Assembly: GCA_009377375.1 (NCBI GenBank) | Contig: WHUE01000012.1 | Coordinates: 2,427-66,426, forward strand | DNA: 64,000 nucleotides | Reading direction: 5' to 3' | From: Alphaproteobacteria bacterium | Lineage (GTDB): Bacteria > Pseudomonadota > Alphaproteobacteria > MPNO01 > UBA2964 | Shown: piece after piece, positions 20,756 to 62,284 of the stretch | How the letters are laid out: every line of letters begins with the position of its first letter | How positions within the stretch are numbered: position 1 is the first letter of the stretch | The notes under the pieces: generated by a model | Databases searched by the model: none | Told to the model about the DNA's origin: nothing | What the model saw: the letters and a program-made list of their open reading frames with translations, nothing else | Translations under genes and position numbers: made by a program

Positions 20756-22063
20756 TCAGTCGTTTCTGCCCTCTCGCTCCCTCAGCACGTCCACGATCGC
20801 GCCGGTCAGCACCGCCACCTCCTCCGGCGTCGCGATCAGCGGCGGCATCAGGTAGACGACGTCGCCGAACGGGCGCAGCCACACCCCGCGCTCCACGAAG
20901 CGGTCCTTCATCCACGGAAAATCGCGTGGCGATTCGAGCTGCACCGCGCCCATCGCGCCGAAGGCGCGCACGTCCCTGACACCCAAGATATCCCGGCAGG
21001 GGGCGAGCCCTGCCGCGATCTCCGCCTCCATCGCGGCGGCGCGGGCGACCGTCGTCCCATCGGCAAACAGGTCCAGCGCGGCCAGCGCGGCGGCGCAGCC
21101 CAGCGGGTTCGCCATGTAGCTCGGCCCGTGCATCAGCGCGCGGGAGGCATCGTCCGACAGGAAGGCGTCGAACACGGCCGCGCTCGCCGCCGTGGCCGCC
21201 ATGCCGATGGCGCCGCCGGTCATCGCCTTGCCGATGCAGACGATGTCGGGCACGACGCCGGCATGGTCGCAGGCGAACATCCGCCCGGTGCGGCCGAACC
21301 CGGTGGCGATCTCATCGGCGATGAACAGCATTCCGTGCCGCCGCGCCGCCTCCGCGACGAAGCGCAGCGTGTCGGCGTCGTGCAGCTTCATGCCCCCGGC
21401 GGCCTGCAGCATCGGCTCGACGATCACGGCCGCGGCCTCGTCGCGATGGCGCGCCAGCAACGACTCGAACGCCGCGCGCGCCTCCGCCGTGCGGGGGATG
21501 TCGGCCAGGACCTGTTCGGGGAAATAGCCGCGGAACAGCGCATGCATGCCCTCAATCGGGTCGCAGACCGACATCGCGCCCATCGTGTCGCCGTGATAGC
21601 CGAAGCGGAAGCAGACGAAGCGGTTGCGCGCCGCCTCGCCGCGGTTGCGCGCCGCCTCGCCGCGGTTGCGCCAGTACTGCACCGCCATCTTCATCGCCAC
21701 CTCGACCGCGACCGAGCCGGAATCGCAGAAGAAGACATGGCCCAGCGCCGCCTCCGTGCCCGCGCCCGGCAGCACGGCGGCGAGCCGGTCGGCGAGCGCC
21801 AGCGCCGGCTCGTGCGTCAGCCCGCCGAACATCACATGCGGCATGGCGCGGAGCTGCGCCTCCATCGCGGCGACGATATGCGGGTGGTTGTAGCCGTGGC
21901 AGGCCGTCCACCACGACGCGATGCCGTCCAGCAGCGTGCGCCCGTCTTCCAGGTGGATGCGGGTGCCCTCCGTCCGCACCGCCTTCCACGGCGCGGGCTC
22001 GGTCTGCATCTGGGTGTAGGGCCGCCAGACGCGGCGCAGGCGGGGATCGGGCGCGCCGGTCAC
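20756..22063 (-). CDS. bioA: adenosylmethionine-8-amino-7-oxononanoate aminotransferase
   Basis: class III aminotransferase; WRPYTQM aligns with E. coli WHPYTSM 11 aa after the start, which supports the GTG start at 22063 (the start is uncertain); contains an in-frame 7-aa duplication. Confidence 0.8.
   Translation of the reverse strand: MTGAPDPRLRRVWRPYTQMQTEPAPWKAVRTEGTRIHLEDGRTLLDGIASWWTACHGYNHPHIVAAMEAQLRAMPHVMFGGLTHEPALALADRLAAVLPGAGTEAALGHVFFCDSGSVAVEVAMKMAVQYWRNRGEAARNRGEAARNRFVCFRFGYHGDTMGAMSVCDPIEGMHALFRGYFPEQVLADIPRTAEARAAFESLLARHRDEAAAVIVEPMLQAAGGMKLHDADTLRFVAEAARRHGMLFIADEIATGFGRTGRMFACDHAGVVPDIVCIGKAMTGGAIGMAATAASAAVFDAFLSDDASRALMHGPSYMANPLGCAAALAALDLFADGTTVARAAAMEAEIAAGLAPCRDILGVRDVRAFGAMGAVQLESPRDFPWMKDRFVERGVWLRPFGDVVYLMPPLIATPEEVAVLTGAIVDVLREREGRND
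21621..21672. repeat. in-frame 21-bp tandem duplication inside bioA (two full units plus a partial third)
   Basis: unit cggttgcgcgccgcctcgccg x2; encodes YWRNRGEAARNRGEAARNRF where orthologs have a single copy. Confidence 0.8.
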
Positions 22064-22068
22064 GGTGC

Positions 22069-23067
22069 CTACGGCGCGGAAGGGTCCATCGGGTGCAGCC
22101 CCAGCCGGTCGAACAGGGCCCTGTCGGCCGCGCTCGCCGGGTTCTCGGTGGTCAGCAGCATGTCGCCATAGAAGATGGAGTTCGCCCCGGCGAGGAAGCA
22201 CAGTGCCTGCATCTCGTCGGTCATGTCCTCGCGGCCGGCGGACAGGCGGACGACGGAGGCGGGCATCATGACCCGCGCCGCCGCGATGGTGCGCACGAAT
22301 TCCAGCCCGTCCACCGGCTCCGCCCCTTCCAGCGGCGTGCCGGCGACGGCGACCAGCCGGTTGACCGGCACGCTCTCCGGATGCCGCGGCAGGCTCGCCA
22401 GCGTGGCCAGCATGGCCGCGCGGTCGGCGCGCCCCTCGCCCATGCCGACGATGCCGCCGCTGCAGACATGGATGCCGGCGTCGCGGACGCGGGACAGCGT
22501 GTCCAGCCGGTCGGAGAACCGGCGGGTGGAGATTATCTCGCCGTAGAACGCCTCCGACGTATCGATATTGTGGTTGTAGTAGTCCAGCCCCGCCTCGGCC
22601 AGCCGGGCGGCCTGCGGGCCGGTCAGCATGCCGAGCGTGACGCAGGTCTCCATCCCCAGCGCCTTGACCGCGCCGATCATCTCGCAGACGGGGGCGAGCT
22701 GCGCATCGGTCGGGCTGCGCCAGGCCGCGCCCATGCAGAACCGGCTGGCGCCCGCGTCCCTGGCGCGCCGCGCGGCCTCGGTCACGCGGTCGAGCCCCAG
22801 CAGCGCCTCGCGCTCCAGCCCGGTGTCGTAATGCGCGCTCTGCGGGCAGTAGGCGCAGTCCTCCGGGCAGCCGCCGGTCTTGATCGACAGCAGGGTGGAA
22901 AGCTGCACCGCGTTGGGATCGAAATGCGCCCGATGCGCCGCCTGGGCGCGGAAGATCAGGTCGTTGAACGGCAGATCGAATAGCGCCAGCGCCTGGGCCT
23001 GCGTCCAGTCGTGCCGGATGTCGGGGTCGGGCGCGGCATGCGCCTCGGGAGGCAGGGTGGTTGCCAT
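22069..23067 (-). CDS. bioB: biotin synthase
   Basis: radical-SAM CPEDCAYC motif; start ATG 23067 (MATTLPPE). Confidence 0.9.
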
Positions 23068-23155
23068 GCGGCGCTTATAGCATGCGATTCGGGACGGCGC
23101 GATTCGGAGTCTCGGCCCTAGGCGCGATGGCGCGCGCGGGTGTATTAACGCCTCG

Positions 23156-24325
23156 ATGGGCGACGGAAAACACAGCCTCGCGCAATTCGCGGCCGGCAAG
23201 CTCGCGGCGCTGGAGGCTTCGAGTCTGCGGCGGGGGCTGACGGTCACGTCGCGCGGGCCGGCCGGCGCCGCGACGCGGGGCGGGCGGGCGCTGGTCTCGT
23301 TCTGCTGCAACGACTATCTCGGTCTCAGCCAGCATCCCGCCGTCAAGCAGGCCGCGGCGGCGGCGTTGGCGCAGTACGGGGCCGGGTCGGGGGCGTCGCG
23401 GCTGGTGACCGGCAACCACCCGCTCTATGAGGCGCTGGAAGCGGCACTGGCGCGGATCAAGGGCACCGAGGCCGCCTGCGTGTTCGGCAGCGGCTACCTC
23501 GCCAATCTCGGCATCGTGCCGGCCTTCGCGGGCGCGGGGGATCTGATCCTCGCGGACGAACTCAGCCATGCCTCGATGCATGCGGGCATCGTGGCGAGCC
23601 GCGCCGAGGCGCATTTCTTCGCCCATAACGATGCGGCCGACTGCCGCCGGCTGCTGGAGGCGCACCGAGGCGGCGCGCGGCACTGCATCGTGATGACCGA
23701 GGGCGTGTTCTCGATGGACGGCGACCGCGCGCCGCTGGCGGCGCTGGCCGACCTCGCCGACGAATTCGACGCCTGGCTGATGACCGACGACGCGCACGGG
23801 CTCGGCGTGCTCGGCGGCGGGCGGGGCAGCGCGGCGGAAGCGGGCGTCGCCGGGCGCGTCGCGCTGCAGATGGGCACGCTGTCCAAGGCCGTGGGCTCCT
23901 ATGGCGGCTATCTCTGCGCCGCCCGCCCGGCGATCGAGCTGCTGGCCAGCCGGGCGCGCAGCCTGGTCTATTCCACCGCCCTGCCGCCGGCCTCGGTCGC
24001 CGCCTCCTACGCCGCGCTGGACCTGATCGAGCAGGGGGGCGCGCTGGTCGCCGCGCCGCTGGCCAGGGCGCGGCGCTTCACCGCGGCGCTGAACCTGCCC
24101 GAGGCCGAAAGCCCCATCGTGCCGCTGATCGTCGGCGATCCGGCGCGGGCGCTCGCCGCTTCCTCCGCGCTGGAGCAGGCCGGATTCCTGGTCACCGCCA
24201 TCCGCCCGCCGACCGTGCCGGCGGGCACCGCCCGGCTCCGCTTTACCTTCGCCGCCGACCACGCCGAGGCCGATATCGACCGGCTGGTTACCGCCGTGCG
24301 GGGGCTGGATCTGGCGGGGGCATGA
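23156..24325 (+). CDS. bioF: 8-amino-7-oxononanoate synthase
   Basis: class II aminotransferase, PLP lysine context [12 protein letters not shown]. Confidence 0.85.
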
Positions 24326-24449: not shown

Positions 24450-24476
24450 TGCCTGCCCCGGGACCGGGTGCCGGCC

Positions 24477-25163
24477 ATGAGCGGGCTGTTCGTCACCTCG
24501 ACCGGCACCGGGATCGGCAAGACGCTGGTGACGACGCTGCTGATCGGCCGGCTCCGGGCGCAGGGGCGGGTTGTGGCGGCGGTCAAGCCGGTGATCACCG
24601 GGTTCGATCCGGCGGACGCCGCGGCCAGCGACACCGGCCTGCTGCTGGCGGCGCTTGGCCGCGCCGTGACGGCGAGGAACGTCGCCGCGATCTCGCCCTG
24701 GCGCCTCAAAGCGCCGCTGTCCCCGGACATGGCGGCGTCGCGCGAAGGCGCGACGCTGTCCGCCGCCACGATTGCCGCCTTCTGCCGCGACGCCGACCGG
24801 CCCGGCCAGGTCACGCTGGCGGAAGGCGTCGGCGGGGCCATGGTGCCGCTGGGCGGGCGGGAGACCCTGCTGGATGCGATGGCCGCGCTCGGCTGGCCGG
24901 CGGTGCTCGTGGCGGGCAGCTATCTGGGCACGTTGAGCCATACCCTGACCGCCGCCCGCGCGCTGGCCGGGGCGGGGGTGAATCTGGCCGGCCTCGTGAT
25001 CAGCGAATCGCCCGAAAGCCCCGTGCCGCCCGCCGAGACGGCGGCGACGCTCTCCCGTTACGTGACGTCCGTCCCGGTGATCGTCGTGCCGCGCCTGGAT
25101 CCGGCGGCCCCGCCCGCCCGCGGCCTGCCCGATCTCACCGTGCTGGCGGGCGCGGCGCCGTGA
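24477..25163 (+). CDS. bioD: dethiobiotin synthetase
   Basis: P-loop LFVTSTGTGIGKT; ATG 24477 preferred (a GTG at 24468 is also possible). Confidence 0.85.
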   Translation: MSGLFVTSTGTGIGKTLVTTLLIGRLRAQGRVVAAVKPVITGFDPADAAASDTGLLLAALGRAVTARNVAAISPWRLKAPLSPDMAASREGATLSAATIAAFCRDADRPGQVTLAEGVGGAMVPLGGRETLLDAMAALGWPAVLVAGSYLGTLSHTLTAARALAGAGVNLAGLVISESPESPVPPAETAATLSRYVTSVPVIVVPRLDPAAPPARGLPDLTVLAGAAP

Positions 25164-59794: not shown

Positions 59795-62284
59795 TCAGAA
59801 GCGGTGGAGCAGGCGGTCGATGTAATCCAGCTCGATGCGCGGGCGGAAGCTCTGCCCCGAGCGCCGGCGCAGCTCGTCGAGAATGTCGCGGGCGCGCTGC
59901 ACGGCCGATTCGTCGGGGATCTGCACATCCGAGGAATCGGCGTCCGACCCCATCATCTCGCGGCCGAGCGGGTCGCGCTGCGGCTGTCCGGGGCGCTGCT
60001 GGCGCGGCCGGCCCATCCCGCTCTCGCGGGCGAAGCGTTCCATCATCTGCTCCATCAGCCCGCGCCCGGCCTGGCGCAGCTGTTCCAGCGCCTGGCCCTG
60101 CTGTCCGGCGGCGTCGCCGGGACGGCCCTGCTGCAGCGACCGGATGGCCTGCTCCATCGCCTCGTTGGCGCGATCGAGAAACTGGCCGGGGCCGGGGCCC
60201 TGGCCGGGCTGCATGCCCTGCATCTGCTCGCGAAACTGCTGCAGCATGCGCTGAAGCGCCTGCTGGTCCGTCGCCTGGCCGGGGCCGGGCTGCATGCCCT
60301 GCTGCTGCCGCCGGAACGACTGGTCCATGAGCTGGCGCTGGCGCTGCATCATCTGCTGAAGCTGGCGCATCGCGCCCGCGCCCTGGCCCTGCGGGCTGCG
60401 CGAGCGCATGACCTGCATGGCGCGCATGTTCTCCATCATCTGCTGCAGCTGGGCGAGCATCTCGCGCGCCGCCTGGCGGGCGCCGGACCGCATCAGATCG
60501 CGAATCTGGTCCAGCATCTTCTGCAGGTCGGACGATCGCATCATCTGCATGGTGCTGGGATCGAACTCCTGCGGCTGCTGGTCCGGATTCTGCATCATCT
60601 GCTGCGCCATCGCGCGCAGGTAGCGGTCCAGCGCGCGCCTGAGCTCGGCCATCAGCCGCTCCAGCTCGGCATCGGAGGCGTTCTCGGCCAACGCCTTCAT
60701 CAGCGTCTCCTGCGCCCGGCGCAGCTCGCGCTCGGCGAGCGAGACGCGCCCGTCCTCGAGCCGCAGCGCGGTGTCCCAGAGCAGCCCGCGCACCGGCTCG
60801 ACAGCGCCGTCGGTCTCATCCATCGACAGCCGCGACCGGGCCGTGATCAGCGCGAGGAACACCACGGAATCGTGATGGAACGCACCGGGCTCGGAGGCGA
60901 TCTCCACGATCCGGCGGACGATGTCCTCGCGCTTGTGCGGCTCGCTTGTCAGGCGCTTGCGCTGCTCGATGATGGCGCGGGCGACCGGGTTGGTGAACTG
61001 GCGCTCGGGCAGGGTGAACGGCATTGCCTCGGAGCGCCCTTCCTGGCCCAGAGCGTCCACCGCCACAAGCTCCATCGTCACCGGCATTCCCGCCCATTTG
61101 TGCGGGGCGAGGTCGTGGAAGCCGGATTCCTTCGCCGCGGTGGCGTTGCGGCCCGGCAGATGGAGCTCCAGCGTCGTCATCTCCTTGCCGATCACCGCGC
61201 CTTTTTCATAAGTGCGGCGCAGTTCCGCCCGGACGGAGACCAGCCCGTAATCGTCGGCCGCGTTGAACGCGATCCCGGTGGCGGCGTGCAGCGTCGGCTG
61301 CGGCGGTTTGTCGAAGGCGATGGTCGGCGGCCGGTCCGGCACGATCTCGACGGCCCATGCGCCAAGCGTCTCGCCCGAAAGCTCGACCTCGAGCGGCCCG
61401 CCCTTTTCGAGCGCCATCTCCAGCCGGCTGCTGGCGCGATCGACCGTCTCGAACGGGACCGCATCGTCGCCGAGGCGCAGCCGCGCCTGGCCGCCGCCCG
61501 GCCCCTGCACCTGGGCCGCCAGCTTGCTGCCGGCGGGCACCTTCAGCAGGACCGGGCCGTCCGGCGCGGCGGCGCCCTGCGGTCCCGCAGGCGGCGCGCC
61601 CGCGGGCGCCTTCGCCAGCCGCGTCGGGAACAGCGGGGCGAGACCGGTATAGGAGGGCGGCGTAATCCACAAATCCAGCCTGGCGACGTTCGCCGCGCTC
61701 TTGCCCACGCCCAGCGCCGGCTGCAGTGCGCGGGCCAGCCGTTCGTCCGCGTCCCTCCACCCGGCGGTCAGCCCGACGACGAGCAGCAGCAGCAGCGCGC
61801 CGCGCAGGCTCCACTGGTCGAGGCGGGCAAGGCCCGGCGTCGGGGCGCCCACGCGCAGCCGCCGCACCATCTCGGCCATGCGTTGCTGGTGCACCCGCCA
61901 CAGCGCGGCGGAATCGGGGTCGTTGCCGCCGACGGCGAGCGTGTCCTCCATCGCGGCCAGCGGCCGGTGGTCGAGCCCGCTCGCCTGTTCCAGCCGGCGC
62001 CGCGCCTCCTCCGTGCCGGGGGCGGAGAAGCGGCGGCAGCCCCGGCGCGCCGCAACGCCGAACGCGACCGCAAGCGCCAGCAGGACGAGCGCGTGAGCCC
62101 ATCCGGGCAGATGCGGCAGGACATCGAGCAGGGCAAGGGCCAGAAACAGCCCGGCGATTCCCACGGCGGGCCACGCCGCCAGCCAGGCACTCTCCCAAGT
62201 CAGCGCGAGCCGGGCCAGACCAAGCTTTCGTCCCAGCCGGGGGAGAGTCGGGCGGATACGGTCGTCTTCGGCCAAATCCGTCAT
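59795..62284 (-). CDS. TIGR02302/DUF4175-family membrane protein with Q/M-rich coiled-coil region
   Basis: N-terminal TM helices, large periplasmic-like domain, long Gln/Met-rich low-complexity C-terminus. Confidence 0.75.
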   Translation of the reverse strand: MTDLAEDDRIRPTLPRLGRKLGLARLALTWESAWLAAWPAVGIAGLFLALALLDVLPHLPGWAHALVLLALAVAFGVAARRGCRRFSAPGTEEARRRLEQASGLDHRPLAAMEDTLAVGGNDPDSAALWRVHQQRMAEMVRRLRVGAPTPGLARLDQWSLRGALLLLLVVGLTAGWRDADERLARALQPALGVGKSAANVARLDLWITPPSYTGLAPLFPTRLAKAPAGAPPAGPQGAAAPDGPVLLKVPAGSKLAAQVQGPGGGQARLRLGDDAVPFETVDRASSRLEMALEKGGPLEVELSGETLGAWAVEIVPDRPPTIAFDKPPQPTLHAATGIAFNAADDYGLVSVRAELRRTYEKGAVIGKEMTTLELHLPGRNATAAKESGFHDLAPHKWAGMPVTMELVAVDALGQEGRSEAMPFTLPERQFTNPVARAIIEQRKRLTSEPHKREDIVRRIVEIASEPGAFHHDSVVFLALITARSRLSMDETDGAVEPVRGLLWDTALRLEDGRVSLAERELRRAQETLMKALAENASDAELERLMAELRRALDRYLRAMAQQMMQNPDQQPQEFDPSTMQMMRSSDLQKMLDQIRDLMRSGARQAAREMLAQLQQMMENMRAMQVMRSRSPQGQGAGAMRQLQQMMQRQRQLMDQSFRRQQQGMQPGPGQATDQQALQRMLQQFREQMQGMQPGQGPGPGQFLDRANEAMEQAIRSLQQGRPGDAAGQQGQALEQLRQAGRGLMEQMMERFARESGMGRPRQQRPGQPQRDPLGREMMGSDADSSDVQIPDESAVQRARDILDELRRRSGQSFRPRIELDYIDRLLHRF

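Follow-up and report, generated by a model that had tools for sequence, protein, structure and literature searches.

An in-frame 21-bp tandem duplication, probably genuine and recent, in bioA of an alphaproteobacterium

The bioA gene of an alphaproteobacterium, carried on a 64-kb stretch of DNA that was analysed as a whole (hereafter the window), contains a 21-bp unit that is repeated head to tail within the reading frame. This raises the question of whether the organism really carries the repeat, how and when it was gained, and whether the encoded transaminase still works. The evidence makes it probable that the array is genuine and that it arose in a functional bioA by an evolutionarily recent tandem duplication of a single 21-bp unit, in frame; we infer that the repeat is real in the cells, beyond the assembly.

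The repeat array in bioA

Tandem Repeats Finder reported a perfect array on the minus strand at 21620..21671, consisting of two full 21-bp units and 10 further bp (period 21, 2.5 copies, 100% matches, 0% indels). With a score of 104 it was the top-scoring tandem repeat of the 64-kb window, the runner-up reaching 60. The letters from 21620 to 21671 are GCGGTTGCGCGCCGCCTCGCC twice, followed by GCGGTTGCGC; the head-to-tail copies are identical and lie without spacer, as in a duplication of the slippage type. A preliminary description of this DNA had recognized the repeat and given the same unit in another phase, with both ends placed one base too far right (21621-21672). On the coding strand, TGG is followed by two copies of CGC AAC CGC GGC GAG GCG GCG and then by CGC AAC CGC and TTC, the array itself beginning with the G before the first CGC. 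In frame this reads W131, RNRGEAA, RNRGEAA, RNR and F149, with R132-R148 encoded by the array (translation ...MKMAVQYWRNRGEAARNRGEAARNRFVCFRFGYHGDT...). The first RNRGEAA copy (residues 132-138) lies at 21650..21670, the second (residues 139-145) at 21629..21649, and the triplet R146-N147-R148 at 21620..21628, all on the minus strand. The translation of the minus-strand ORF that holds the array (20756-22201) agreed exactly with the peptide described previously and with the claim that the 21-bp repeat lies in frame within bioA.

A scan of the window over all offsets from 4 to 200 found the longest perfect self-match, 31 bases, at offset 21 starting at 21620, whereas the longest self-match in 100 second-order Markov simulations of the window had a mean of 13.3 and a maximum of 17. 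Since 31 bases compare with a simulated maximum of 17, the array is far beyond chance, and it is not an effect of the G+C composition of 70%.

The coding sequence at 20756..22063 (minus strand, 435 aa and a stop) was identified as bioA, encoding adenosylmethionine-8-amino-7-oxononanoate transaminase, from its ORF, NCBIfam models and PDB matches. It exceeded the BioA equivalog cut-offs of both NF004624 (544.4 bits; cut-off 494) and TIGR00508 (515.6 bits; cut-off 405), scoring 4-10 bits lower than P0002, a single-copy BioA used as control (554.4 and 519.8 bits, respectively). In a PDB search, the BioA chains of E. coli, Citrobacter and M. tuberculosis were matched with E-values from 1e-111 to 5.8e-127. 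The Schiff-base lysine and the PLP- and substrate-binding residues were mapped through a phmmer alignment to 6ED7, which showed conservation of E. coli Y17, W52, W53, G112, S113, Y144, H145, D147, E211, D245, R253, K274 and R391; the roles of these residues are taken from published E. coli work, and the PDB lists mutant entries for Y17F, Y144F, D147N, R253A/K and R391A.

The surrounding genes form a biotin-operon context. Directly upstream of bioA on the same strand lies bioB (biotin synthase, 22069..23067, minus strand; TIGR00433, 397 bits, cut-off 225), with which it is probably co-transcribed. Beside them is a divergent pair on the plus strand, bioF (8-amino-7-oxononanoate synthase, 23156..24325; TIGR00858, 439.1 bits, cut-off 426.45) and, downstream of it, bioD (dethiobiotin synthase, 24468..25163; TIGR00347, 115 bits, cut-off 83.3), so that bioB, bioF and bioD each pass an equivalog cut-off. 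Downstream of bioA are rpsU and a gene for an ABC1/UbiB-type kinase. The synteny recurs in relatives: the bioB/bioA layout is common to the related loci L001-L003, and related metagenome contigs are arranged alike.

The most plausible start of bioA, judged from the sequence, is the GTG at 22063, 5 nt past the bioB stop, because it agrees with the start in the closest relative (P0002, encoded at locus L001) and keeps the conserved WRPYTQM motif. The GenBank record MPY69426.1 (417 aa) begins instead at the internal Met of MQTEP (region 22007-22063, minus strand) and loses 18 residues, including WRPYTQM, whose Tyr is the active-site Y17 of E. coli. The JGI call for P0002 uses a start equivalent to the GTG at 22063, and the GenBank start codon of the window bioA was probably mis-called.

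Copy number among relatives and the origin of the duplication

Among 5.8 billion proteins searched, the sole 100%-identical entry was this same MPY69426.1 ("MAG: Alphaproteobacteria bacterium"), which comes from the same MAG; the duplication is known from that single assembly, its GenBank protein being the one other record. Looked up exactly, the GenBank protein matched no contig of the assembly collection, and it is the only member of its 90% cluster. The nearest proteins, P0002 and P0003, share 93-95% amino-acid identity with the window BioA, and P0004-P0006 share 77-83%; all five have a single RNRGExxRxR segment. At the nucleotide level, the loci L001 (P0002; JGI 3300044698) and L002 (P0003; JGI 3300037483) are 93.9% and 94.3% identical to the window over 5.5-5.7 kb. 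Both have the gene order of the window (ABC1 kinase, rpsU, bioA, bioB) and lack the 21-bp unit, their loops reading RNRGEAGRNR in L001 and RNRGEAARTR in L002. The unit is the sole indel within bioA relative to either locus, and the 5.5-kb comparison with L001 contains three indels in total.

The same single-copy state was found throughout the wider sample, in L001-L005 and all other homologues checked (119 further proteins and at least 162 loci). The distance from DSGS to YHGD is 39 residues in 117 of the 120 proteins listed, 38 in two, and 46 in the window's own protein only. Of the scorable loci listed from GTDB genomes and JGI metagenomes (at least 162), 145 have a distance of 39 and 17 one of 38. 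The expectation that orthologues carry one copy was thus borne out in 119 of the 120 proteins listed and in at least 162 loci, and the proposed check of recency against sister sequences came out in favour of a recent event, the closest relatives, at ~94% nucleotide identity, carrying one copy. Because these close relatives are single-copy and the two copies in the window are still identical, the sequence comparison indicates that the duplication is lineage-specific and recent, having arisen after the split from relatives ~6% apart in DNA. An ancient, conserved insertion is ruled out by the single-copy relatives.

The relatives also point to how the unit was gained. When one unit is removed, the inferred ancestor reads TGG, a single 21-bp unit, CGC AAC CGC and TTC, and it holds the 10-mer GCGCAACCGC twice, exactly 21 bp apart. 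This direct repeat consists of the CGC AAC CGC codons, identical at R132-N133-R134 and R146-N147-R148, together with the preceding G. Of the five single-copy relatives, two show partial microhomology: L001 has GGCGCAACCG twice (10 nt) and L004 GCGCAACCG twice (9 nt); in the remaining three the second triplet contains ACC or ACG (ACC in L002). With the RNR...RNR codon repeat in relatives, the partial third copy is accounted for, and so are the points at which the duplication begins and ends. Read in this way, the sequence indicates a gain of one 21-bp unit, with the 10 bp at the end of the array belonging to an ancestral direct repeat outside the event. Of the two perfect tandem copies and partial third copy originally described, the former therefore stand (100% matches in Tandem Repeats Finder), and the latter was not part of the duplication but a pre-existing 10-bp direct repeat. 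MAFFT pairs the second RNRGEAA copy with the single copy of the homologues; the two copies are identical, and the sequence does not tell a new one from an old one.

Tandem duplications of short units between direct repeats are a classical class of bacterial mutation. Slipped-strand mispairing or template switching classically leaves a unit as long as the spacing of an earlier direct repeat, with its junctions within the repeat. The window array resembles such duplications in its identical head-to-tail copies, its direct-repeat end points and its unit equal to the spacing; it shows no difference in kind, and no signal of a secondary-structure hot spot. The 10-bp direct repeat was likely the slippage substrate. 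We infer a mechanism in which the ancestor already had GCGCAACCGC twice, its two Arg-Asn-Arg triplets having identical codons at a spacing of 21 bp; once the nascent strand had copied the second repeat during replication, it would re-pair with the first, and the intervening 21 bp would then be copied again, by slipped-strand mispairing or microhomology-mediated template switching. The idea that DNA secondary structure promoted the slippage was rejected, since the array and the inferred ancestor, folded as single-stranded DNA on both strands, had hairpin potential no better than shuffled sequences (z from -0.2 to +0.8, that is, around 0). The phenomenon is well known, and this particular allele is new but unremarkable, an ordinary finding with little significance outside this genome. 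It does offer a clean natural case of microhomology-templated, in-frame duplication in a housekeeping enzyme with the copies still identical.

The same observations bear on whether the repeat is an artefact of assembly or sequencing, in which case the organism would be single-copy or have another copy number, and the extra unit would stem from the assembler, from polishing or from polymerase slippage in vitro. An artefact would equally give perfectly identical copies, the duplication occurs in one assembly only, which is a MAG, and when GTDB species representatives and JGI metagenomes were scanned with the protein, no further contig among the matches listed exceeded 65% amino-acid identity. 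Moreover, the period of 21 is a common starting k-mer size. However, a single-copy template with only a 10-bp repeat would form no de Bruijn cycle at k of 21 or more and would give an assembler no motive to add a unit, and ordinary reads and final k-mers are longer than the 52-bp array, which would normally be resolved. Assemblers collapse repeats more commonly than they expand them, and a mis-assembly of a true two-copy array would give a wrong copy number but leave the duplication itself in place. The junctions coincide exactly with microhomology common to relatives, a signature of biological or polymerase slippage, while the event is in frame and the rest of the 5.5-kb comparison is clean. 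An artefact is thus less likely than a real duplication, and on balance we consider it unlikely. In practical terms, the analysis flags this MAG site for verification, along with the probably mis-called GenBank start codon.

The altered loop and the function of the enzyme

The window BioA and the single-copy control P0002 were modelled with AlphaFold2 using a 120-sequence alignment. Both models have a pTM of 0.92, and the mean pLDDT is 90.8 for the window BioA and 91.7 for P0002. The helix that precedes the insert spans residues 116-132 in the window protein and 116-133 in P0002; the loop comprises 15 residues (133-147) against 7 (134-140), and the following strand spans 148-152 against 141-145. 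All secondary-structure elements beyond the loop are unchanged and offset by exactly +7. The model has the fold-type I, class III aminotransferase fold, superimposing on BioA crystal structures with a TM of ~0.9 and an rmsd of 1.8 A, and the best 50 Foldseek matches are all BioA (TM 0.81-0.91). These models place the insert in a loop after the MKMAVQYW helix, where the preliminary description had put it, and the E. coli protein has the single copy that had been described at this site (YWQAKGEARQRF), the alignment with 6ED7, 1DTY and 5UC7 opening an 8-residue gap opposite the insert.

The N-terminus of the helix, G116-S117, is the PLP-phosphate site, and the insert follows at the C-terminal end ~16 residues on, which by helix geometry would put it ~24 A from the cofactor. 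In the proposed arrangement, the seven extra residues RNRGEAA would lie between this C-terminal end and the strand leading toward the active-site Tyr156-His157, with one copy able to hold the native contacts and the other bulging out. As an exact duplicate, the insert would leave either copy able to supply the conserved loop residues in the native register; in the AlphaFold model, the first copy is the looped-out, low-confidence part. In engineered tandem duplications of T4 lysozyme from the Matthews laboratory, one copy is reportedly free to adopt the native position, with the other looped out. Like behaviour is suggested here by the AlphaFold model, but T4 lysozyme is a different protein and an experimental system, so that the comparison is an analogy only.

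How well such an insert is tolerated depends on the loop itself. Its length is near-invariant among close homologues, with 38 or 39 residues from DSGS to YHGD in all 281 others listed, and loop positions N133, G135 and R139 (P0002 numbering) show little or no variation. The fixed length rules out a free, fully variable loop, and since these positions are conserved and the length nearly constant, an insertion here could be costlier than in a free loop. With close homologues near-fixed, tolerance finds its support in same-site insertions in more distant BioA lineages. When a 56-residue segment was searched against 1.84 billion proteins, ~12 of the best 150 representatives carried +2 to +17 residues in the same loop, and a comparable repeat was present in no other protein among these 150. 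For example, P0261 reads YWQGQDLPLAQKAQKQRIL where the Citrobacter BioA 5UC7 has YWQAK------GESRQRFL (6-residue gap). These natural inserts (P0261 +6, P0209 +6, P0267 +8, P0140 +7, P0181 +10 and P0252 +17) occupy the same position, from the end of the QYW/QY helix to the K/R-x-F/L strand. Unlike the window insert, which is an exact copy of its neighbour, they are of low-complexity or unrelated sequence, are not internal repeats and are fixed in divergent lineages, several of which are probably eukaryotic, judging by length and composition. As far as these alignments indicate, the site is demonstrably permissive in the wider BioA family. The structurally characterized enzymes of E. coli and M. 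tuberculosis (1QJ5, 1MLY, 6ED7, 3TFT and 4CXQ) share with the window BioA the fold (46-48% identity, TM ~0.9), the catalytic and substrate-binding residues checked, and the MKMA(L/V)QYW...RF helix-loop-strand. The Trp-to-Phe loop, by comparison, has 9 residues in E. coli, 10 in close relatives and 17 in the window BioA, and PDB alignments showed an insertion at this site in no solved BioA structure. The loop after the PLP-phosphate helix is thereby marked as insertion-permissive, which might interest engineers of class III transaminases.

Substitution patterns were consistent with a maintained gene. Pairwise dN/dS against five relatives was 0.20-0.31, and lineage-unique codon changes numbered 20 synonymous and 10 non-synonymous in the window, 19 and 7 in L001, and 10 and 13 in L002. 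These counts give no sign of gene decay or relaxed selection, bearing in mind that a very recent event would leave no trace in them. A pseudogene is ruled out, since the frame is intact, the catalytic residues are conserved and the substitution pattern speaks against it. Because it exceeds the equivalog cut-offs, retains the catalytic residues, lies in a bio cluster and shows no relaxed selection, the window bioA looks functional; its product most likely still makes 7,8-diaminopelargonate (DAPA), the predicted activity being the SAM-dependent transamination of KAPA.

The duplication might nevertheless be real and damaging, with BioA impaired or inactivated and the allele either transient and deleterious within the MAG consensus or tolerated through import of biotin or DAPA. 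Such damage would fit the near-invariant loop length in the 281 close homologues listed and the conserved N, G and R positions, the fall in mean pLDDT over residues 131-140 from 96 in P0002 to 62 in the window model, and the HMM scores 4-10 bits below the control. It is set against a gene free of frameshifts and stops, with its catalytic residues kept and a synonymous to non-synonymous ratio like that of relatives (in which a very recent event would show nothing), an otherwise unchanged AlphaFold model, three other intact bio genes and same-site insertions of up to 17 residues in other BioA lineages. Weighing these points, we regard a damaging duplication as quite improbable. The best-supported reading is instead the one offered at the outset as a possibility, a recent slipped-strand event tolerated in a loop, given the single-copy relatives, the placement in the loop and the same-site insertions elsewhere. 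The effect of such a duplication is most likely neutral or slightly deleterious.

An opposite view would have the array benefit the organism, either as a functional in-frame VNTR through whose variable copy number BioA is tuned or as an adaptive duplication under positive selection; this we hold to be highly improbable. The two-copy array, with its 31 bp of self-identity, would be more prone to slippage than its ancestor, and copy number could vary in the population. Other high-GC bacteria are known to have in-frame repeats that vary (PMC12817950). On the other hand, no copy-number series was seen: the copy states observed were one (relatives, the closest at ~94% nucleotide identity) and two (window), and no protein had three or more copies among the 120 proteins listed, the at least 162 loci and the best 150 of 1.84 billion representatives. 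Phase-variable repeats have units not divisible by three or lie at a promoter site, whereas this unit of 21 bp is seven codons inside the CDS; being a multiple of three, it could not switch the gene on and off. The insert is far from the active site, and a housekeeping cofactor enzyme has no obvious need of tuning. The comparisons made gave no positive evidence for a copy-number repeat that tunes the enzyme. Very little credence is accordingly given to the idea that the RNR...RNR codon repeat seeded a polymorphic in-frame repeat with a copy number that differs within the natural population and alters BioA stability, oligomerisation or activity. Were it true, the array would be a small tuning element in an enzyme of cofactor biosynthesis.

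Other features of the window

Residue 170 of the window BioA (21554-21556) is Ile, giving CDP-I-EGMH where nearly all homologues have CDP-D-EGMH. None of the closest relatives shares this Asp-to-Ile change, although Ile is also present in P0070. In the divergent bioB-bioF spacer (23068-23155), no match to the alphaproteobacterial BioR operator consensus TTATNNATAA was found, even with one mismatch allowed, and Rfam and tRNA scans detected no RNA genes in the window.

The divergent bioF-bioD pair adjoins bioB in L001 as in the window, whereas L002 has ~1.8 kb of extra genes between bioB and bioF (726-2581 of L002), absent from L001 and from the equivalent position of the window (~23107-23171). 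The extra segment encodes an HTH/Peptidase_M78 (ImmA/IrrE-like) protein and a DUF4411 protein, and looks like a small two-gene module inserted in the divergent bio promoter region. At the extreme 3' end of bioF, the window has 9 extra bases relative to L001 (TGCCCCCGC on the aligned strand, at ~24314-24322, the stop being at 24325), which is the only other indel of a multiple of three in the 5.5-kb comparison. Elsewhere in the window, the minus strand at 59798-62284 encodes an 829-aa DUF4175 protein (Pfam, 759.8 bits) with a Gln/Met-rich C-terminal part (QQMMQ..., MQPGQG...), whose degenerate internal repeats (~60020-60630) account for two of the window's next-longest self-matches, at offsets 81 and 93.
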